The notes beneath the pieces were generated by a model, which worked only from the letters and a program-made list of their open reading frames with translations, was not told the origin of the DNA and made no database searches. This document shows, in pieces, positions 24,724 through 45,883 of a stretch of 64,000 nt of DNA (within the stretch, counting starts at the first letter, position 1; every line of letters begins with the position of its first letter). The stretch spans positions 463,672 through 527,671 of the forward strand of contig CAYNQD010000001.1 of the NCBI GenBank assembly GCA_964399295.1, given 5' to 3'. A program made the position numbers and the translations under genes. This DNA is from an uncultured Candidatus Saccharibacteria bacterium (GTDB lineage Bacteria > Patescibacteriota > Minisyncoccia > Phycocordibacterales > UBA918).

Positions 24724-25236
24724 TTAAAAGCTCAAATATTCTTCCAAAAAACTTATCTCTCGTCGTAGTATAAAATGCCCTTCAAACTTACCCGGAACAT
24801 CCGTCTTCATTTTTTCCAACACCACAGCCGGTGGCAACCAGAGTGTTTCTTGCCCTTCCTCTACTTCTCCTTTCTCCAGCTTAGGCAAACCAATCTCACC
24901 ACGGACATCAGCGATATAACAATACGACAAATGCATAAGCTGGTATTTGTTTCTATATTCAATAACCAAACCCACCGGCCGCACAATCTCACATTCACAA
25001 CCTACTTCTTCCCTGACTTCGCGCTTCAAAGCTTCTTCTGTAGACTCGCCACTTTCCACACCACCACCGGGTAGCTTGTGAAAAGTGTAGGTATTCAGAT
25101 ACTGAGTAGCCATATTGCCTTCAGCATTGAGCAAGATGGCTCTGGCACTTTTACGCAACCTATAGGTTTCTTCCAACTGCTCATACTCATTACTCAAACC
25201 AAGCGAGCCTTCACTAATTTCAGCTAAAAGTTTCAC
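24724..25236 (-). CDS. NUDIX hydrolase
   Basis: Nudix box GGGVESGESTEEALKREVREEVG. Confidence 0.75.
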   Translation of the reverse strand: MKLLAEISEGSLGLSNEYEQLEETYRLRKSARAILLNAEGNMATQYLNTYTFHKLPGGGVESGESTEEALKREVREEVGCECEIVRPVGLVIEYRNKYQLMHLSYCYIADVRGEIGLPKLEKGEVEEGQETLWLPPAVVLEKMKTDVPGKFEGHFILRREISFLEEYLSF

Positions 25237-31635: not shown

Positions 31636-32895
31636 CTATAACGAGTCGTCCGATGTCAGGTACTCGTCGCTATGCTTTTTCATCTGTTCAATAACTCCAG
31701 TTCTGAAGTTGTATTCTATGGTCATGATCGGCCCGTCGTCATTGTTCAGCCTATTATTTTTTCTGTCTATGGTCGGGACATTGCGGAAGGATAATATCTC
31801 GATTTCGCCCCGTTTCATTTGGTTGATATAGGAAGTGCTCGTTCCCACGCAGTGATCCATGTACTCCGACTCTTCTTCCAGGTGCGGCATATTCAGGAGG
31901 CGCGCCACATAATACTTGCCGGACTTGGTGGTGAAAAAATTTTCCCACGGATTAAATCCCTCGCCCGTTTGTTCGGCCTTGCGTTTGCGTATCTCGGCAA
32001 TCTTTATGAGCGTTTTTTCTTCGTGGACTTCAAACAGGCGATGAAGCGAACCTTTGTCGGTGCTGATAAATTTTGGAGATTCTATGATGGCGTCGTAAAG
32101 CACATTCGCATCAACGGCGTCGTTATTTTGAAAATGTCTGGCAATCTTTAGTTTGAGAACCGCCTTCTGGCGTTCGCCAAACACAAAAGGCTTTTCGTCC
32201 TCGCCTTGCGCCGCCTCCCTCTCAACCGCCTTAAGACGCTCTGCAAGCGTGTTGAAGGTGTCGTTCATGAGACGCTCTTTCCCCGCGCGTTCCTGCTCGG
32301 AAAAAGTGCCGAGCGTTTTCTGATATTCCTGATTGATCTTGGCAAGATATTTCTGTTCAAATGCTGCAATCTGCTCCCGTTCCACTTGTTCAGGCGACTT
32401 CTGGTCTACCAGTTTCTTCTCGAAAAAGTCCGCGCTCATGCCGCCCATATCATCCGTACGGATTCTTTCAAAACCATAGCGCTCCAGGATCCGATTCAGT
32501 CGAGCGTTCCAGTCGTGGAAATTCAATCCGGTATACCCTTGCGTTTTCGCATACTCCAAAAATGCTGGGATTTCCCGAAAAAGATTCTTCCCCGTTGATT
32601 TCGTTGTACCGAAATATTTTATATACGCTTCATGTGGAATGAAGTCCTCGCAAGCGATGTATCCGGAAACATCGCCATCTTCGTCAGATATGATTCGGTT
32701 AAGAGGATGGCCGTTTTCGAGCGTGCGGATAACATCCGGGACTGCAAGTTCTCTGACGATTTCCTCCACTTCTTCTATACCCAAGGTGATTTGGCGGATA
32801 TCCTGCTTCTGTTCTTCCGACAAGACCAGCCGTTCGTTCGATTTTTCTTTCTCCTGAGCGTATAGGGTGCTTTTTCCATATTCTGATTTTAGCAA
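31636..32895 (-). CDS. hypothetical protein (419 aa); C-terminal HCVG-containing region possibly PcfJ-like
   Basis: C-terminal motif YMDHCVGTSTSY; N-terminal segment ends ...RYGFERI (GNAT-like?). Tentative. Confidence 0.35.
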   Translation of the reverse strand: MLKSEYGKSTLYAQEKEKSNERLVLSEEQKQDIRQITLGIEEVEEIVRELAVPDVIRTLENGHPLNRIISDEDGDVSGYIACEDFIPHEAYIKYFGTTKSTGKNLFREIPAFLEYAKTQGYTGLNFHDWNARLNRILERYGFERIRTDDMGGMSADFFEKKLVDQKSPEQVEREQIAAFEQKYLAKINQEYQKTLGTFSEQERAGKERLMNDTFNTLAERLKAVEREAAQGEDEKPFVFGERQKAVLKLKIARHFQNNDAVDANVLYDAIIESPKFISTDKGSLHRLFEVHEEKTLIKIAEIRKRKAEQTGEGFNPWENFFTTKSGKYYVARLLNMPHLEEESEYMDHCVGTSTSYINQMKRGEIEILSFRNVPTIDRKNNRLNNDDGPIMTIEYNFRTGVIEQMKKHSDEYLTSDDSL

Positions 32896-32960
32896 AAATG
32901 AGCACTTTTCGCTATACTGATTTCAGATTGGGCTCTAGATTTTTCAAAAATCAGCAAAAA

Positions 32961-33059
32961 CTCGAGCCCATGACTCATTCTCAGGATACGTTGCAAAATA
33001 TAGCGATTTTAGGAGACTCGATAGTTCTCACATGACTGCTGACAGTCAGAGTCGTACAC
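32961..33059. repeat. island repeat copy A: conserved ~60-bp block (gagcccatgact..ttgcaaaatatagcgattttaggagactcgatag.tctcac) followed by a degenerate tRNA-Gln 3-prime-end remnant (atgactgctgacagtcagagtcgtacac)
   Basis: Aligned by eye to copies B, C and D. Confidence 0.7.
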
Positions 33060-33198
33060 TTGTGTGGTGAGACACCGTAAGCACATTATGTGAGTTGGTA
33101 TATGGCTTCAACTAGGCGTCTAATTGTGAATGATACAAATGAGACACAAAACACCCGTTTCGGTCTATGTATCATTAAATATAGAGCGTATTATGAAC

Positions 33199-34929
33199 TC
33201 ATACAATAAGTACATCGCCGTATATTTCCAAGAAAAGACTGGCAACTTTATTTTTCTGTTTAACTGAAACTGTTTTCACTCCTTGTTGTTTTTTGCTATA
33301 TAACTCGTTTATACTTTCAATAATTTCACCTTGTACTAGACGAATGAAATCACCAACCCTATCAGCATCTTTATCTATGAAATTAACTGCATTGCCATCA
33401 TTTATTAGATAGACACTCTTATTATCAAGTAAAATCTCAGAAACAAACTCATCGCTTCTAATAATTGTGCAAGCACTATTATCTTCACACTTAAAACCAA
33501 ACTCATCTTCTGAAGAAGTGACTGAGGCAACAAATGATCCTGATTGCAGATTCTTCAGATCATCAAGCGTTAGAGAGCGCGAACCAGTGGCAGAAAACAA
33601 TATATTGATAGCTTTAATAAGTTCACCCTTTTGCATCGGGATACAGCCATCTTTCATTGCTTCAACTAATTTTAATGGGTCTGTGTCAAATACAAATGGT
33701 TTGCAATTTTGATTAAAAAGATATTTTGCAATTCCTTTGCCTAGTTTTCCATATCCCAATATACCTGTTTTTACATATCTTGGTAATACACGATATTTTC
33801 GAGTAATCATTTCTGTATAATATGCGACACTATATCCGACCAAATCATCTTCATTTTGCTTTAATTCACTTCGAGCAACAGAAAAAACAGGAATTGTAGG
33901 GCTGATATGTGTGAATAATTTTTCATATTTCTGAAGACCATTTTCGGTATCCTCGACAATGCCTAAAATTTGCGAGTTATTAGCACAAAAATCAAGGAAC
34001 TCTTCCGTCGCAAAATATCCTCCAATGTCGATAATTAGACTTTTCTGATTTTTCGGAAATAGTTGTGATAATACTGTCTGACCCTTCAACTCTTCACGGG
34101 ATACCTGAGCGAAGTTAAAGTCCTGGATTGCCCCACGCACCAGTTCCGATATTGAGTTTGGTTTGGGAATTATTGTTAATGATTTAACTTTATTTTTAAG
34201 CACAGATATAAAAGGGACTATGTCTGTAACGATATGTTGTACAGCAATCACACTGCAGTCACTCAAATCATATTCACTGAGCAACCGTTCAAAATAAATA
34301 TAGTCACGCTTTTTGGAAACAAACATCTCAACCTTCTTGGCCACTCGTGACAAACTTTCATCTTTAATAAATATTTCTGTGATTGGCACAAAATCGTAGC
34401 CATCGATCTCCTCTTCTGAGATTAGTCCTTGATTATAATTCTTTAAGACGAAAACGTAGCGGAGATCAAAATGGAGATGTTCTGGCTCGCCCTTTTTAGG
34501 ATTTTCTGGAATAACATGAATATCAATATCAATTGGTACATCGGTTCCTTTAAAAGCGGGGATGTACATTAAATCTATAAACCCGGTCTCTTCCGCCACC
34601 TCTCTTTTAGCAGTTTCATAAAAAGAAGAGTCAGTCTCATCAACATGCCCGCCGGGCTGGATAAATTTGCCGAGCTTTTTATGTTTAATTAGGAGTATTT
34701 TGGAAAGAGTTGGGTCAAGCACAATGGCACTGGCAGTGATATGTCCAAAGGTATTTTTTCTAGAAATAACAGAAGAGTTTGTGTAAAATAATTTTGATAG
34801 TTTTTCGTCTATCTCAATTGTTGGATAAACATGCAAATATTCTTTGACTATTTTATTTACATAAACACGAGTATCTTGGTCATTAGAAAACATGTTGCTT
34901 ATTTTAATATAGATAATATAAATAAACAA
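33199..34929 (-). CDS. fusion protein: N-terminal NUDIX hydrolase domain plus S-adenosyl-L-homocysteine-hydrolase-like (SAHH-fold, NAD-binding) domain; probable start at the internal Met (about 34893)
   Basis: Nudix box GGHVDETDSSFYETAKREVAEETG. C-terminal blocks parallel SAHH (IDIGGY ~ DDGGD; VEDTENGLQKY ~ TEETTTGVHRL; GILGYGKLGKGIAKYL..DTDPLKLVEAMKDG ~ GYGDVGKGCA..EIDPINALQAAMEG; ILFSATGSRSL ~ IFVTATGNKDI). Confidence 0.6.
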   Translation of the reverse strand: MFIYIIYIKISNMFSNDQDTRVYVNKIVKEYLHVYPTIEIDEKLSKLFYTNSSVISRKNTFGHITASAIVLDPTLSKILLIKHKKLGKFIQPGGHVDETDSSFYETAKREVAEETGFIDLMYIPAFKGTDVPIDIDIHVIPENPKKGEPEHLHFDLRYVFVLKNYNQGLISEEEIDGYDFVPITEIFIKDESLSRVAKKVEMFVSKKRDYIYFERLLSEYDLSDCSVIAVQHIVTDIVPFISVLKNKVKSLTIIPKPNSISELVRGAIQDFNFAQVSREELKGQTVLSQLFPKNQKSLIIDIGGYFATEEFLDFCANNSQILGIVEDTENGLQKYEKLFTHISPTIPVFSVARSELKQNEDDLVGYSVAYYTEMITRKYRVLPRYVKTGILGYGKLGKGIAKYLFNQNCKPFVFDTDPLKLVEAMKDGCIPMQKGELIKAINILFSATGSRSLTLDDLKNLQSGSFVASVTSSEDEFGFKCEDNSACTIIRSDEFVSEILLDNKSVYLINDGNAVNFIDKDADRVGDFIRLVQGEIIESINELYSKKQQGVKTVSVKQKNKVASLFLEIYGDVLIV

Positions 34930-34931
34930 AG

Positions 34932-35031
34932 CTCGAGCCCATGACTCGTTCTGAAACTACATTGCAAAATATAGCGATTTTAGGAGACTCGATAGGTCTC
35001 ACTACTCTGCTGTGTCCCGCGGTCTAGAACC
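34932..35031. repeat. island repeat copy B (conserved block plus degenerate tRNA-Gln 3-prime remnant tgctgtgtcccgcggtctagaacc)
   Basis: Near-identical core ttgcaaaatatagcgattttaggagactcgatag shared with copy A. Confidence 0.7.
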
Positions 35032-35098
35032 TTTTGCGGTGACAGGCCATAAGGATATTCTGATAAAGATTCCTATACCAAACTGATCTGTCTCGGTC

Positions 35099-35887
35099 TT
35101 AGACACTCTTTCTCAAATTTTCGTATAGATCAATAATATTATCTTTCTCGTTGTTTGTGGCATACTCTTTCCACGCAGATAGATTTTGTCTTGCAGTTTC
35201 AATAAGACGAGAATGATATCTCTCTACTGCCCCTGACATAAAATATCCATTGTCTCCGTTTATTCTCAACCTCAACTCCTCATCGGCAGATAAATAAATA
35301 AGGGAATGTAGGAGCCATTTTTCTTCCTCTGTTTTAGATTCGTTAAACTGCTCTTCTGTAAGCACGTGGAGAAATTCATGACAGAGACCGATAAGCTGAT
35401 AATTATCGTAAAGGTCAGGATTGCCCCATTCGATTACATTGTTACCAATATAGCTACCTGTCTCAATCTCTGGATGCAAGACCAGCACGATCGCCTCTGC
35501 AGAAGTATTCAGGCGAATTATATCCTCGTATTTCTGGACATACGCGGTATTTTCATTCCATAATTTCTCCAACCGATTCTTATAGCCATCGGTTTCTGAA
35601 TATCCTTTTTTGAATACTTCAGATTCAAAAATAGATTCAAATACTCTGTCTACGGTATCTTTATCTCGAATGACCGTACTACCTTGCGACCACTGATTAA
35701 ACCACAGCAATCCATGCCCTACGTCAGCAGGCTCAAAGAATAAAAAGCCCGGATACGCCTCATATTTTTCTGCAAGACTTCTTTTTAGTTCAGCCCATTC
35801 CGAAGGAGCATCGGGGTTGCCGAAATATTTCAATACGTATTTATATGCAAGATGATATTTATCTACTTTGAATTCCAACTTAAGCAT
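35099..35887 (-). CDS. hypothetical protein with HExxH zinc-metallopeptidase-like motif
   Basis: Motif LCHEFLHVL; no further family assignment possible. Confidence 0.45.
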   Translation of the reverse strand: MLKLEFKVDKYHLAYKYVLKYFGNPDAPSEWAELKRSLAEKYEAYPGFLFFEPADVGHGLLWFNQWSQGSTVIRDKDTVDRVFESIFESEVFKKGYSETDGYKNRLEKLWNENTAYVQKYEDIIRLNTSAEAIVLVLHPEIETGSYIGNNVIEWGNPDLYDNYQLIGLCHEFLHVLTEEQFNESKTEEEKWLLHSLIYLSADEELRLRINGDNGYFMSGAVERYHSRLIETARQNLSAWKEYATNNEKDNIIDLYENLRKSV

Positions 35888-35918: not shown

Positions 35919-35987
35919 AGATAGCGAGTTACCTCCTTTCAAGGTGTCTCGGTCTCTTAATGACTGCTGGCTGTCACGGATGTGAAC
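35919..35987. repeat. island repeat copy D (degenerate): tagcgag..gtgtctcggtctcttaatgactgctggctgtcacggatgtgaacc
   Basis: The reverse complement ggttcacatccgtgacagccagca parallels the tRNA-Gln T-arm/acceptor ggttcgagtccttgtcgggcagca. Confidence 0.55.
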
Positions 35988-36114
35988 CTACGTGGCAAGG
36001 CACCGTAAGGGTATTATCTCATCCCTTCTACCCCTTGTGCGAGGTGTCTCGGTCTCTGGGGTGTTTTTATGAATGATACAGATGAGACACAAAACACCAG
36101 TCTCGGTCTATGTC

Positions 36115-36249
36115 TCATTTACGCTTCGGACGAGACTTTCGAGCTGATTTGACTTTTTCCCGACGGATTCGACGAGCTTCATCCTTGGCTTTTCGCTCCT
36201 CCTCACGCTGTGCCATCTCTTCGGGAGGAACCACACGGAGATGATCCAT
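36115..36249 (-). CDS. small basic ORF (44 aa, MDHLRVVPPEEMAQREEERKAKDEARRIRREKVKSARKSRPKRK); speculative
   Basis: Manual translation; below the ORF-track cutoff; lies in the GC-rich segment and overlaps the conserved hairpin motif. Confidence 0.2.
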   Translation of the reverse strand: MDHLRVVPPEEMAQREEERKAKDEARRIRREKVKSARKSRPKRK

Positions 36250-36382: not shown

Positions 36383-37192
36383 TCAAGAACACTTCCTGGC
36401 AGCCGACAACCCGACGCCGTCGTTGCGGTTGACGCCCCAATAGCTGCCGACGTAGAGCCCGTAGGAATCGAAGCTGCCGACGTAGACACGGTCACCGTCC
36501 GAGCCGAGACTGGATGTCCTAACGTAGATGCTTTCGAAGAGTCGGACACCACGAACCTCGAAATAAGTCGTGGTGAACCAGCTCATCTCGGCGGCGTTCG
36601 GCACCTTCTCGAGTGCGGAGAGAAGCTTGCCCTGCTCGTTCCACGTCTTGCTGGTCGAGTTTTGGATGGGCGTCTTCTTGATCATGAGCCACCCGAAAGA
36701 CGTCTTGTCCTCGCGGGCGAACTTCTGATCGGCATACCACCCACCCGTCTTCGAGTAGAAGTGGGCGGATTGGATCTCCCGAACGTCGAGCAGTGACATC
36801 GCCGTGGGCGGTGCGGGCATGACGGCGTAACCGTTTTCCTTGCACCACTTGAGCACGTCCAAGGGCGGCAGACTTTCGGCGAGTGCCGTGATCTGTTCGA
36901 CGGTGTAAACGATGCTCGGGCGAGCCTCGGTGACTTCCTCGGGCGTAATGAAATCCGCGGCGAGGATTGACTGTGCCAGACCGTAGTCGGGCGCTTTGGC
37001 TGAGAAGCGACGGATGCCTTCTGCGAGATACACGGCGAAGCCGGGATGCTCGTTCAGGATCTGTGCGCTTTCGTCGTTGAGTCCCGCCTTGTTGTATTGG
37101 GCGCGGAACGTTTCGGTAGCTCTCTGTCCTTTCGGACTGTCTGCGGTTACCAGTGCAGACGTGTTCAATGTTTTCATCGACATCATCTCCAT
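36383..37192 (-). CDS. DGR target (variable) protein; C-terminal variable region VR at 36395..36509
   Basis: The last ~38 codons (..LGSDGDRVYVGSFDSYGLYVGSYWGVNRNDGVGLSAAR) are a 115-bp near-repeat of the TR at 37632..37746, with mismatches concentrated at TR adenines. GC-rich relative to its surroundings. Confidence 0.75.
   Translation of the reverse strand: MEMMSMKTLNTSALVTADSPKGQRATETFRAQYNKAGLNDESAQILNEHPGFAVYLAEGIRRFSAKAPDYGLAQSILAADFITPEEVTEARPSIVYTVEQITALAESLPPLDVLKWCKENGYAVMPAPPTAMSLLDVREIQSAHFYSKTGGWYADQKFAREDKTSFGWLMIKKTPIQNSTSKTWNEQGKLLSALEKVPNAAEMSWFTTTYFEVRGVRLFESIYVRTSSLGSDGDRVYVGSFDSYGLYVGSYWGVNRNDGVGLSAARKCS
36395..36509 (-). repeat. DGR variable region (VR)
   Basis: 115 bp; 14 mismatches against TR, 12 at positions where TR has A. 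The identical GC-rich 3-prime end gcgtcgggttgtcggctgccagg (IMH-like) is followed by an 8-bp-stem/3-nt-loop hairpin cgaatgct-ggg-agcattcg at 36346..36364. Confidence 0.75.
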
Positions 37193-37631
37193 TTGCTGAT
37201 TTACCGAGAACGCTCGGAACGACTTGCCTCAGTTTGAGACGAGCTTTCTAGGCCCTGAATGTAAGGCTCAAAAAGCTCGTCTCAACAATGATTCTCTATC
37301 AAAGAACACCCATATAGTATAGCAAATAAATGGCTATTTGTCAATGATTTTGGCGACCTGTCGACTATCGGTTATACTATGAATATCATGCTAATGTAGC
37401 TTGGATTACGGTTCAAGCTCGCGAGATATCTCACCTTGAGATATCGCCAGATTGCCAGTGGTTTATGGATCACGGCAGAGCGCGATTAAGGATAGAGAGA
37501 ACTTCTTGCTCGCTTCTAGAGGAGATGCTTTGAAAGAGGCTGCTTCCGAATAAAATTCAGAGATGAGAGGATATAGACCTGCAAAGGTAGTAAGCCTCAA
37601 GTCTCGGTGACATAGACGGAAGCGGGCAATA

Positions 37632-37746
37632 TCTCGACTCGGACGGTAACCGTGTCAACGTCGGCAACTTCGATTCCGACGGGCTCAACGTCAACGGCTA
37701 TTGGGACGACAACCGCAACGACAGCGTCGGGTTGTCGGCTGCCAGG
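37632..37746 (+). repeat. DGR template region (TR), rich in AAC codons
   Basis: TR sense (+ strand) matches the reverse complement of VR. TR AAC/GAC/AGC codons correspond to TAC/GGC/AGC/GAC/GTC in VR. Confidence 0.75.
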
Positions 37747-37794
37747 CAGTCAAACTCTATCCAAGGAAACTCCCGTCAAAAACGGGAGTTTCTG

Positions 37795-38145
37795 TTAACG
37801 ATCCTTCGTTGACTTGATCCACCCTCCGAGCATCCTCCCTATTTCGTCAAGATTGGCTTCGATGATGATGTATTTTTTAGCATCAATCGCTTTTACATCT
37901 TTCATGAGGCGAATGCAGACTCGCAGAAAATTAAGTTTGACGCTCGTCTTCTCCAAGGTCGGCAGCTTATCTGACTTAGACTGCTGGCTTGCGAAAATTA
38001 TACCTTCTAATACATCGATTAGTAGACTTTCGCATTTTTGCCAGAGCGTGTAGCGATCTTGCTTTGGAACGGATAGGCGCAGATTATAGAAATCTTTGTA
38101 GAGATCGTAGCTCTTCTTGAAAATTGGTATATCTAAATCATTCAT
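37795..38145 (-). CDS. avd: DGR accessory variability determinant-like protein (four-helix-bundle family, TIGR02436-type)
   Basis: MNDLDIPIFKKSYDLYKDFYNLRLSVPKQDRYTLWQKCE ... EIGRMLGGWIKS matches the four-helix-bundle/Avd family. Confidence 0.7.
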   Translation of the reverse strand: MNDLDIPIFKKSYDLYKDFYNLRLSVPKQDRYTLWQKCESLLIDVLEGIIFASQQSKSDKLPTLEKTSVKLNFLRVCIRLMKDVKAIDAKKYIIIEANLDEIGRMLGGWIKSTKDR

Positions 38146-39247
<1,102 letters not shown>

Positions 39248-39297
39248 AGATTTAAGTATGACTAAATAAGAGTCTAAGACACCTAAAAATACCAGTT

Positions 39298-39373
39298 CAA
39301 GCCCATGACTGGTTCAAATTTAAGATTGCAAAATATAGCGATTTTAAGAGTCTCGATAGCTCTCACATGACTG
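39298..39373. repeat. island repeat copy C (conserved block abutting the authentic tRNA-Gln 3-prime end)
   Basis: caagcccatgactggttc..attgcaaaatatagcgattttaagagtctcgatagctctcacatgactgctg runs directly into the tRNA-Gln. Confidence 0.7.
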
Positions 39374-39444
39374 CTGCCCGACAAGGACTCGAACCTCGAT
39401 ACCATGGACCAAAACCATGTGTCCTACCATTAGACGATCGGGCA
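39374..39444 (-). tRNA. tRNA-Gln (anticodon TTG) with U1-A72 pair and G73 discriminator
   Basis: Manual fold of the minus strand: acceptor tgcccga/tcgggca, D-stem gtct/ggac, anticodon stem catgg/ccatg with loop ttTTGgt, T-loop ggttcgagtcc. Confidence 0.75.
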
Positions 39445-44980: not shown

Positions 44981-45883
44981 CTACCGACTGATGTTCGATT
45001 TAATTATAAACGGTTCAATATCTCCTTTAAGCACGCGCTCAATATCCCTCACCTCCACGCCCGTGCGGTGGTCTTTTACTAATTGATAAGGATGAAGGAC
45101 GTAGGAACGAATCTGGCTACCCCATTCTATTTTTACGCTTTTCTCCACCGACAAACCCTGCAATTCTCTTTCTCTTTGCGCTTCGTAAAAAGCAAATAAT
45201 TTTCCGGCCAAGAGAGTCAATCCCCGTTCACGATTTTGCTGCTGCGAACGCTCCGACGAAATATTAACGGAGATGCCGGTAGGCTTGTGGACAATCCGAA
45301 CAGCGGTTTCTCTTTTGTTTACGTTTTGTCCGCCCGCGCCTCCGGCGCGGGCAAAGCTCACCTCAATTTCATCCTCTTTCAACTCCACGGTACTGGTGTC
45401 ATCAATCCGCGGCGACACCTCGACCAACACAAAAGAAGTTTGTCTCTTGCCATTGCTATTGAAGGGAGAAATCCTAACCAAACGATGCACCCCCGACTCC
45501 TGCCGCAAAATCCCATAAGCTTCCTTTCCTTGAATCTCCAGCGTGATGTTGCGGTAACCGTTGTGGTCGTTGGTGTTGCTGTCGATTACAATTATTTCCC
45601 AATTTTTTAGCGCGCAAAATCCCTGATACATTTCCACCAACATCCGCGCAAAATCTTCAGCATCATCACCGCCCGCGCCAGCTACTATTGTTACAACGGC
45701 GTTATTTTTATCGTACTTGCCTTTTCCCTGTGCCGCATCTTTTAGTTCTTGCAATTCTTTAATCATCGCCTGAGCGGTCTTGGGATCATTCCAAAATGTC
45801 GACTGAAGCATAGCTTTTTCAATCTCATCAATCCGCGCTCGTGAATCTGACATATCCAACGAGTATAACAAAAAACTACACAA
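44981..45883 (-). CDS. prfB: peptide chain release factor 2 (short N-terminus; probable start at internal ATG about 45853)
   Basis: SPF tripeptide ([14 protein letters not shown]) and GGQ motif ([18 protein letters not shown]). Confidence 0.8.

Follow-up and report, generated by a model that had tools for sequence, protein, structure and literature searches.

S-Adenosylhomocysteine hydrolase (SAHH; AhcY, EC 3.13.2.1) is, to our knowledge, among the most conserved enzymes known, and its Lys/Asp pair drives 3'-oxidation of the substrate. The only catalytically divergent bacterial homolog in the literature that we searched is AgmF of angustmycin biosynthesis, which holds tightly bound NAD+, rejects S-adenosylhomocysteine (SAH), and dehydrates a nucleoside at the end of its pathway, with H56, D129, K184, D188, and H299 as essential residues (PMC8599513). 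Here we describe a gene that joins a Nudix domain to an SAHH-like region, carried on the minus strand of a 64,000-nucleotide stretch of DNA from an uncultured Candidatus Saccharibacteria bacterium (GenBank assembly GCA_964399295.1, contig CAYNQD010000001.1, positions 463,672 to 527,671 of the forward strand), which is referred to below as the window. The clade to which its product belongs is, judged from its residues, a distinct variant within the SAHH superfamily, in which neither fold is new; it is set apart because a remodeled, invariant active site is linked to a nucleotide phosphohydrolase. With SAHH it shares the two-domain fold, the GxGxxG motif, the acidic NAD-ribose residue, and eight retained residues. 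In contrast to SAHH, its members are without the full catalytic set, score far below curated cutoffs, are linked to phosphohydrolases, and are borne on islands and plasmids. The original prediction for this locus had not recognized the domain pairing as a described family, and our literature searches, which returned unrelated co-mentions only, found no publication on either the Nudix-SAHH pairing or the clade.

The gene corresponds to an open reading frame (ORF) at 33199-34929 on the minus strand, which encodes 576 aa from a TTG at 34929 to a stop at 33199. Public protein P0001, which is 564 aa long, is 100% identical to the ORF product and starts at the ATG at 34893. We take this ATG, rather than the TTG at 34929, as the probable start, since the 12 codons that the TTG would add overlap a hairpin and T-run at 34934-34948. 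Residues are numbered below by the 564-aa protein; adding 12 gives the numbering of the 576-aa ORF. The gene and its parts are the following.

33199..34893, minus strand: Nudix-SAHH-like fusion gene, 564 aa plus stop, from the ORF, its Pfam, NCBIfam, and PDB matches, and identity to P0001.
34294..34893, minus strand: Nudix-fold domain, residues 1-200, which includes two helices at its N terminus; Pfam NUDIX aligns to 34363-34743.
34579..34650, minus strand: Nudix box of 24 residues, G82-x5-D88-x8-R97-E98-U-x-E101-E102-x-G104-U.
33202..34281, minus strand: SAHH-like two-domain region, residues ~205-564, with a substrate-binding-like domain and an NAD-binding Rossmann domain, from profile and Foldseek comparisons.
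33937..33954, minus strand: invariant E314-D-T-E-N-G319, equivalent to SAHH E155-E-T-T-T-G160, from profile alignment and family counts.
33835..33876, minus strand: invariant A340-R-S-x-L-K345-x-x-E348-D349...G353, where K345 is SAHH K186, D349 is D190, and R341 and E348 are family specific.
33733..33756, minus strand: GYGKLGKG dinucleotide-binding motif, residues 380-387, from the Pfam match and family counts.

That the C-terminal part is specifically related to SAHH, and is not an ordinary dehydrogenase-type Rossmann domain, was part of the original prediction and is borne out by both profiles and structure. Pfam AdoHcyase_NAD matched the fusion protein with an E value of 5e-9, and NCBIfam adenosylhomocysteinase models matched at 2e-20 over profile positions 85-395 of 418. 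SAHH chains in the PDB were found at 1e-13 with the single sequence and at 1.7e-32 with a 65-member family profile, the latter covering SAHH residues 64-415. An AlphaFold2 model built on the family alignment reached a pLDDT of 92.7 and a pTM of 0.90. Its best 50 Foldseek matches in the PDB were SAHH without exception (~405 aligned columns, target-normalized TM scores of 0.62-0.77), with no 2-hydroxyacid or alanine dehydrogenase among those 50; SAHH chains of similar length gave TM scores of 0.72-0.77, and the open Thermotoga maritima enzyme superposed at an rmsd of 3.4 Å. The motifs named in advance are also in place, namely GYGKLGKG at 392-399, D-x-D-P...EAMKDG from 415, and the ATG strand at 447-449 (576-aa numbering). 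The curated equivalog cutoffs were missed by a wide margin, at 68.5 bits versus 497.6 for TIGR00936 and 73.1 versus 275 for NF004005.

Residues were mapped onto SAHH through profile alignments and counted over 65 aligned family members; we use human SAHH numbering and take the catalytic set to be H55, D131, E156, K186, D190, N191, H301, and H353. Eight SAHH residues are retained and invariant in the family: H55 (H220 in the fusion), D130 (D289), E155 (E314), T157 (T316), S183 (S342), K186 (K345), D190 (D349), and N346 (N504). Elsewhere the site is rebuilt, with D131 replaced by Ile (62/65 members), D134 by Tyr, E156 by Asp, T158/T159 by Glu/Asn, N80 by Lys244, N181/D182 by Ala/Arg341, F189 by Glu348, and G300/H301 by Thr459/Ser460 (H301 is Ser in 64/65), while H353 is lost and N191 is variable. 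The expectation that several catalytic residues of genuine SAHH are substituted was therefore correct for D131, H301, H353, E156, and N191. Lys244, Arg341, Glu348, Thr459, and Ser460 are invariant and new relative to SAHH, and, from the alignment, we believe that K244 and R341 border the 5' side of the pocket. The NAD-binding elements are intact: G380, G382, and G385 of GxGxxG are invariant, residue 403, the acidic NAD-ribose ligand, is D or E in 65/65 members, and the 'ATG' strand is kept.

The resulting signature, H..K.S..D-I-G-G-Y..E-D-T-E-N-G..A-R-S.L-K..E-D..T-S..N-F..E, is invariant or nearly so across the 65 members. It is essentially the same in three homologs from plasmids and in 30/30 split or stand-alone homologs checked, whose hosts range from Actinomycetota to DPANN archaea. 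A pattern of this kind indicates invariant remodeling rather than decay, and by the same residues the fusion protein is predicted not to be a genuine SAHH. The SAHH-like domain looks like an enzyme and not a mere binder, because the remodeled site is invariant and the catalytic Lys/Asp and NAD motif are kept. The suggestion in the original prediction that the domain may only bind adenosine or NAD is thus disfavored by a site that is (nearly) invariant in 65 plus 33 further homologs and that keeps its Lys/Asp pair.

Like AgmF, the clade consists of SAHH homologs that would be set apart from SAH hydrolysis. AgmF acts on a nucleoside whose pathway includes a phosphatase, a phosphoribosyltransferase (PRTase), and a LOG-like enzyme; genes of these enzyme types also flank the SAHH-like gene on a Staphylococcus epidermidis plasmid, in an operon that follows the enzyme logic of angustmycin biosynthesis. 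AgmF, however, keeps all classical catalytic residues and has no Nudix fusion, whereas in the clade the equivalent of its D129 is Ile and that of H299 is Ser (AgmF equivalents were assigned by offset from SAHH numbering). Because two of the five AgmF-essential residues are missing, the clade is not an AgmF ortholog.

The N-terminal part carries a clear Nudix domain (PF00293, E value of 8e-11, 42.5 bits against a cutoff of 21.1). The canonical Nudix box is GX5EX7REUXEEXGU, 23 residues; the box of the fusion is one residue longer, with Asp replacing the first Glu, and its R-E..E-E core is complete. The original prediction of a canonical box thus holds for the domain and its catalytic core, but the box itself is only near-canonical. 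The core is complete in 54/65 family members, the window protein included, and is altered or missing in 9-11/65 fused members, in which all SAHH-like sites are kept. The domain also has a family-specific cluster of H51, H83, H126, H139, H141, and D143. Modeled on its own, it gave a pLDDT of 92.7, and the Foldseek matches listed were Nudix proteins throughout. The nearest relative, N-terminal helices included, is PDB 3fcm from Clostridium perfringens (profile E value of 2.5e-22, Foldseek E value of 1.5e-11, TM score of 0.68-0.73), a structural-genomics entry for a stand-alone uncharacterized protein that hence offers no clue to the substrate of the fusion; generic nucleoside-polyphosphate hydrolases rank after it. 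An isopentenyl-diphosphate isomerase (IDI)-like identity, an idea taken from the His cluster, was not supported, as no IDI stood among the structural neighbors listed, and a PHROGs search of the fusion protein gave generic Nudix families only.

The family is large and widely scattered. A search of 5.8 billion clustered proteins gave 387 significant matches to the fusion protein, the best 120 of which were mostly Nudix plus SAHH-like proteins of ~555-565 aa with identities down to ~31%, and a scan of 185,579 species, at one genome per species, gave 455 relatives. Hosts include many Saccharibacteria and other Patescibacteria, Bacillota, Bacteroidota, Pseudomonadota, Actinomycetota, Planctomycetota, and DPANN archaea. 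When ORFs from 78 loci were clustered, the Nudix-SAHH-like fusion order was found in ~40 and the reversed order in 3, while in 24 the two parts were adjacent split genes in either order, the stand-alone Nudix keeping its His-cluster motifs. A few SAHH-like genes had no Nudix partner; the SAHH-like part stands alone in Aeromonas and on a Streptomycetaceae plasmid. Because it persists where the Nudix core is decayed or absent, the SAHH-like domain appears to be the constant core of the family, which argues against a binding-only accessory. The SAHH-like part was matched in 103 plasmid records, three of which were verified. Automated annotation labels such proteins 'NUDIX domain-containing' or 'adenosylhomocysteinase.'

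In Aeromonas spp. (L058, L062, L066, L068, L073, L078, and L082), the SAHH-like gene is chromosomal and syntenic, has no Nudix or HD partner, and encodes Met in place of D315; in six of these seven loci, the gene directly upstream encodes a polytopic membrane protein of 245 aa.

Gene neighborhoods provided evidence of a different kind. A census of 128 immediate neighbors at ~65 nonredundant loci found no third partner that was universal. The recurrent families were P-loop AAA_17/18 kinase-like proteins (6 of the 128), HD, HD_3, or YfbR-like proteins (5-7), AMP-binding proteins (5, of which 4 with PP-binding), major facilitator superfamily (MFS) transporters (4), NDK (3), CYTH (3), PfkB (2), and HAD (2), and second-shell neighbors added further HD, nucleotidyltransferase, DegT, and epimerase genes. 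The kinases among the module neighbors belong to four unrelated folds: an NDK-like gene adjoins the module in metagenome-assembled genomes (MAGs) of Bacteroidota, Micrarchaeota, and Patescibacteria, one each, and an APH-like kinase does so in three actinomycete genera. At six Firmicutes loci from different classes, a nonribosomal peptide synthetase (NRPS) protein with adenylation and peptidyl carrier domains (A-PCP; E value of 5e-61 to gramicidin synthase A domains) directly precedes the fusion, and an MFS transporter follows in five of the six. An MFS exporter adjoins the module on Firmicutes chromosomes, on Lactiplantibacillus plantarum plasmids, and on S. epidermidis plasmids alike.

The strongest single clue to the role of the Nudix partner is its replacement by an unrelated HD nucleotide phosphohydrolase, which points to phosphate removal from a nucleotide. 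On both plasmids and chromosomes this HD partner belongs to the YpgQ/YedJ/PenF family (E values of 2e-27 and 1.5e-20 to PDB 5dqv). YpgQ is a (d)NTP pyrophosphohydrolase that yields (d)NMP and PPi (PMC8177086), and PenF is the nucleotidase for arabinoside monophosphate (Ara-AMP) in the pentostatin/vidarabine cluster (PMC11592144). The HD fold is unrelated to Nudix and the family is not found in the window, but these enzymes occupy the genomic position of the Nudix domain beside the SAHH-like gene and so qualify as its functional analogues.

Two plasmids illustrate the HD version. L. plantarum pL1708-2 (L093) carries a three-gene cassette of MFS transporter, HD phosphohydrolase, and SAHH-like gene; a cassette of MFS, YpgQ-like HD, and SAHH-like genes is also found in 41 other L. 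plantarum plasmid records, some of them conjugative, and in IMG/VR contig L091. In S. epidermidis pHD40-5_1 (L092, CP052964.1 7260-16412), HD, SAHH-like, and MFS genes are part of a ten-gene co-directional operon, in the order LOG-like TIGR00730, ParB_N, HpaB-like flavin monooxygenase, small NUDIX, creatinase-fold protein, pyridoxal phosphate (PLP) enzyme, PyrE-like PRTase, HD, SAHH-like protein, and MFS. It looks like an undescribed nucleobase or nucleoside-analogue cluster on a plasmid of a skin commensal. Any relation to the 6-N-hydroxyaminopurine (6-HAP) of S. epidermidis is pure speculation, and the paper on that compound names no genes.

At five Saccharibacteria loci, the fusion lies beside genes for a GFO/IDH/MocA oxidoreductase, a DegT aminotransferase, and a His-phosphatase, and the same loci hold two nucleotidyltransferases and PfkB, EEP, and 2H genes. 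We take GFO/IDH/MocA and DegT to be the families of Pur10 and Pur4, with the phosphatase in the role of Pur3. On that assumption the five loci resemble the oxidize, transaminate, and dephosphorylate logic of the Pur10/Pur4/Pur7/Pur3 aminonucleoside pathways, although the evidence has limited weight because all five come from one phylum. As for Pur7, the Nudix enzyme of puromycin biosynthesis (PMC11641026), the Nudix domain of the clade would be expected to turn an NTP-level intermediate into an NMP. The likeness proposed here is one of role; the window is without Pur-like partners, and the fusion Nudix has its family-specific His cluster. Taken together, the recurrent partners (nucleotide phosphohydrolases, kinases, an NRPS adenylation enzyme, and MFS transporters) point to small-molecule metabolism of nucleosides or nucleotides.

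We therefore tentatively favor, at somewhat less than an even chance, a bifunctional nucleotide-processing enzyme in which a pyrophosphohydrolase and an NAD-dependent ribose-modifying enzyme make, or less likely detoxify, a nucleoside analogue. Biosynthesis of an exported analogue is preferred because of the NRPS, PRTase, LOG-like, and MFS contexts. The Nudix domain would hydrolyze a nucleoside di- or triphosphate (NDP or NTP), or an NDP-X, at its pyrophosphate bond and so release the monophosphate (NMP). The SAHH-fold domain would then hold NAD+ while K345, D349, and H220 transiently oxidize the ribose 3'-OH, by homology with SAHH and AgmF. What follows at C4'/C5' would be an elimination, dehydration, or substitution rather than SAH hydrolysis, because D131, H301, and H353, which we take to be the SAHH residues that handle water and the 5'-leaving group, are replaced; the substrate may be 5'-anionic or 5'-phosphorylated. 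The product would be a modified nucleoside exported as an antimetabolite or signal. The two folds, the pattern of residues, the linkage of both activities across the family, and the island setting are observed, and the substrate, the product, and the order of steps are our inference. A more specific version is possible but doubtful: a Nudix or HD pyrophosphohydrolase and an NAD-dependent SAHH-fold enzyme, with an MFS transporter at many loci, may form a minimal pathway that turns an ordinary nucleotide into a secreted modified nucleoside by a new SAHH-type chemistry (for example, 5'-phosphate elimination or substitution driven by 3'-oxidation), spread on plasmids and islands through candidate phyla radiation (CPR) bacteria, lactobacilli, staphylococci, and actinomycetes.

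Several points weigh against this interpretation. Catalysis by family members is predicted, and the function proposed for the window protein is carried over from homologs of 29-40% identity. The elimination mechanism of SAHH and AgmF cannot simply be transferred, because two of the five AgmF-essential residues (the equivalents of D131 and H301) are absent. Some members have a decayed Nudix core, so Nudix hydrolysis may be dispensable there and is not always required. The window gene itself has no MFS, NRPS, kinase, or HD partner adjacent to it. Finally, the minimal cassettes of MFS, phosphohydrolase, and SAHH-like genes fit detoxification or resistance equally well.

In such a resistance role, the Nudix or HD enzyme would dephosphorylate the toxic analogue of an imported nucleoside antibiotic, the SAHH-like enzyme would inactivate its sugar, and the MFS transporter would expel it. 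We consider this unlikely overall, even though minimal MFS-HD-SAHH-like cassettes do travel on conjugative or mobilizable L. plantarum plasmids and on S. epidermidis plasmids, the window gene is single-gene island cargo, and the Nudix enzyme Pur7 is listed with the resistance-mediating enzymes of the puromycin cluster. The richest contexts are instead biosynthetic, with NRPS A-PCP genes upstream at the six Firmicutes loci and PRTase, LOG-like, flavin monooxygenase, and PLP enzyme genes in S. epidermidis, and known resistance determinants gave no match. The replaced catalytic residues could also be read as those of a noncatalytic ligand sensor, akin to IRBIT/AHCYL, that binds adenosine, SAH, or NAD and regulates the Nudix domain, and noncatalytic SAHH-like proteins do exist in animals (PDB 3mtg and 3gvp are among the matches). 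A sensor is improbable because it is the SAHH-like domain that stays constant: it stands by itself in Aeromonas and on the Streptomycetaceae plasmid, is joined elsewhere to HD instead of Nudix, and keeps every signature residue where the Nudix core has decayed, with no variation in its catalytic Lys/Asp pair or its NAD-binding motifs.

The original prediction had likened the fusion to enzymes of antiphage defense or counterdefense that act on signals derived from nucleotides (ADP-ribose, NAD derivatives, or cyclic nucleotides, for example), and had proposed a survey of homolog neighborhoods for defense islands. The gene does lie in a variable island beside a diversity-generating retroelement, nucleotidyltransferase, 2H-phosphoesterase, EEP, and CYTH genes occur at some Saccharibacteria loci, and 2 of the 128 flanking genes elsewhere are SIR2/ThsA-like. 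The survey, however, found defense matches among those 128 genes to be sporadic and not enriched, with a few other models once each, and PADLOC-DB 2.0 gave no match for the fusion protein and no significant match for its window neighbors (the best being a weak TnsC match of the PcfJ-like gene, E value of 0.018). Homologs were absent from the 50,697 phage genomes searched and numbered 4 in 2.9 million viral contigs, one of the four being an HD-SAHH-like cassette, and a survey of NAD and ADP-ribose conflict systems does not mention SAHH. With recurrent partners that point to small-molecule metabolism, we consider a role in defense quite improbable. Least probable of all is a divergent but genuine SAHH that recycles SAH in a reduced genome and is fused to a housekeeping Nudix domain. 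The full fold, the NAD-binding motifs, several catalytic residues, and the name 'adenosylhomocysteinase' given by database pipelines would suit it, but scores of 68-73 bits against curated cutoffs of 275-498, the family-wide replacement of D131, H301, and H353, a sporadic distribution on islands and plasmids that is unlike that of a housekeeping gene, a gene G+C content of 0.35 in a genome of 0.43, and the precedent of AgmF, by which SAHH homologs need not hydrolyze SAH, all speak against it.

If these proteins make or destroy a nucleoside analogue, they would extend NAD-dependent 'redox-neutral' nucleoside chemistry by a new type of reaction, supply a compact new module for the biosynthesis of nucleoside antimetabolites or for resistance to them, and offer a rare functional handle on the accessory metabolism of Patescibacteria. 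The clade is distinct within the SAHH superfamily, with its invariant remodeled site present in hundreds of species, often on mobile DNA, and its hosts include skin staphylococci, food lactobacilli, and ultrasmall CPR bacteria. It is a tractable, widespread enzyme family on mobile DNA rather than a new kind of system. Plasmid-borne versions in cultivable hosts make the family easy to test, and the L. plantarum cassettes are a convenient entry point.

Within the window, the fusion gene makes up a cassette by itself in an island linked to a tRNA-Gln gene, and housekeeping genes border the region on both sides. The window CTP synthase is 77-84% identical to proteins of Parcubacteria, Nomurabacteria, and Paceibacterota MAGs. 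The island features that surround the fusion are the following.

39373-39444, minus strand: intact tRNA-Gln, the island anchor, with the original 79-nt downstream segment at 39294-39372.
35099..35887, minus strand: neighboring island gene of 262 aa with no family match, not recurring beside homologs elsewhere.
34930..35032, minus strand: copy of the tRNA-Gln 3' end and 79-nt segment, immediately upstream of the fusion gene, with the hairpin and T-run at 34934-34948.
33115-33176, minus strand: 62-nt repeat just downstream of the fusion gene, 85% identical to 36058-36119.
33032-33089, minus strand: degenerate piece resembling a tRNA 3' half, just downstream of the fusion gene, 71% identical to 35960-36017.
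32959..33061, minus strand: second copy of the tRNA-Gln 3' end and 79-nt segment, between the end of the fusion gene and the start of the PcfJ-like gene, which it directly precedes.
31636..32895, minus strand: neighboring island gene, weakly PcfJ-like (24.7 bits against a cutoff of 25).

Read along the minus strand, the tRNA-Gln and its 79-nt segment are followed by the diversity-generating retroelement, the repeat pieces at 36058-36119 and 35960-36017, and the 262-aa orphan gene; then come the copy at 35032-34930, the fusion gene alone, its own repeat pieces, the copy at 33061-32959, and the PcfJ-like gene. The three long copies (39294-39396, 34930-35032, and 32959-33061) are 75-76% identical over 103 nt, and a stretch of 34 nt is the same in both copies that bracket the fusion gene. 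Together with the two further repeat types, these copies split the 8-kb island into modules of a single gene or element, almost in the manner of cassettes, and each long copy has a terminator-like hairpin directly upstream of the gene that follows. The fusion gene has a G+C content of 0.35, compared to 0.432 for the window and 0.39-0.58 for neighboring modules.

A related contig (L095) keeps the order of NTP-transferases, RF2, FtsE, FtsX, CTP synthase, a 694-aa protein, and tRNA-Gln, but its similarity to the window stops at the tRNA-Gln 3' end, beyond which the cargo is different. Serial insertion at tRNA-Gln is thus well supported as the origin of the island cargo, and the tRNA appears to be an insertion hot spot in the lineage. 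The original prediction had called the gene island cargo, and the tRNA-Gln-linked variable region, the att-like repeats, the low G+C content, and the synteny break in L095 all uphold it, in a region acquired horizontally.

The cargo at 14203-21686 of L095 comprises a His-phosphatase, an unrelated NUDIX gene, an IS3-type transposase, and an RHS/SpvB polymorphic toxin gene of >2,800 aa. Its NUDIX protein was rejected as a member of the same subfamily as that of the fusion, having only the Nudix box in common.

Among the ORFs between 31.4 and 39.4 kb we found no integrase, the only candidates being the weakly PcfJ-like gene and the reverse transcriptase of the retroelement, and a plasmid DNA search with the 7-kb region gave no match. 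The 262-aa ORF and the PcfJ-like gene were discarded as functional partners, since neither recurs beside homologs. A promoter and terminator scan found no convincing promoter at the fusion gene and revealed the repeated hairpin instead, and an Rfam scan of the window and eight informative loci found no riboswitch upstream of the gene, only tRNAs and plasmid small RNAs. A 1,997-nt contig (L001, equal to window 32995-34991), recovered from 7 sequencing samples, holds the fusion gene only. It begins and ends inside the bracketing copies because those copies have the 34 nt in common, and the 26 nt by which its two ends overlap fall within this exact repeat. The end overlap was therefore rejected as evidence of a circular cassette, and it is compatible with an assembly break at the repeats, although the contig could also represent an excised or tandem unit.

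The retroelement at 36383-39247 adjoins the fusion gene's part of the island and has all of its parts present.

38146-39247, plus strand: reverse transcriptase, as two overlapping ORFs with a frameshift in a (GA)n tract.
37795-38145, minus strand: Avd gene (PHROG Avd, E value of 8e-20).
37632-37750, plus strand: template repeat.
36383-37192, minus strand: target gene, with its variable region at 36391-36509.

Template and variable repeats differ at 13 positions, 10 of them at template adenines, and the split reverse transcriptase may reflect an assembly error, a pseudogene, or phase variation.

A second NUDIX gene, a stand-alone one of 170 aa (24724-25236, minus strand; Pfam E value of 1e-15), lies amid housekeeping genes 8 kb from the island. 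An RF2-like ORF lies at 44981-45883 on the minus strand. Its listed start codon is a TTG and the PCRF profile is matched from position 94 onward, so that the usual programmed +1 frameshift may operate here, leaving the N-terminal part in another frame.

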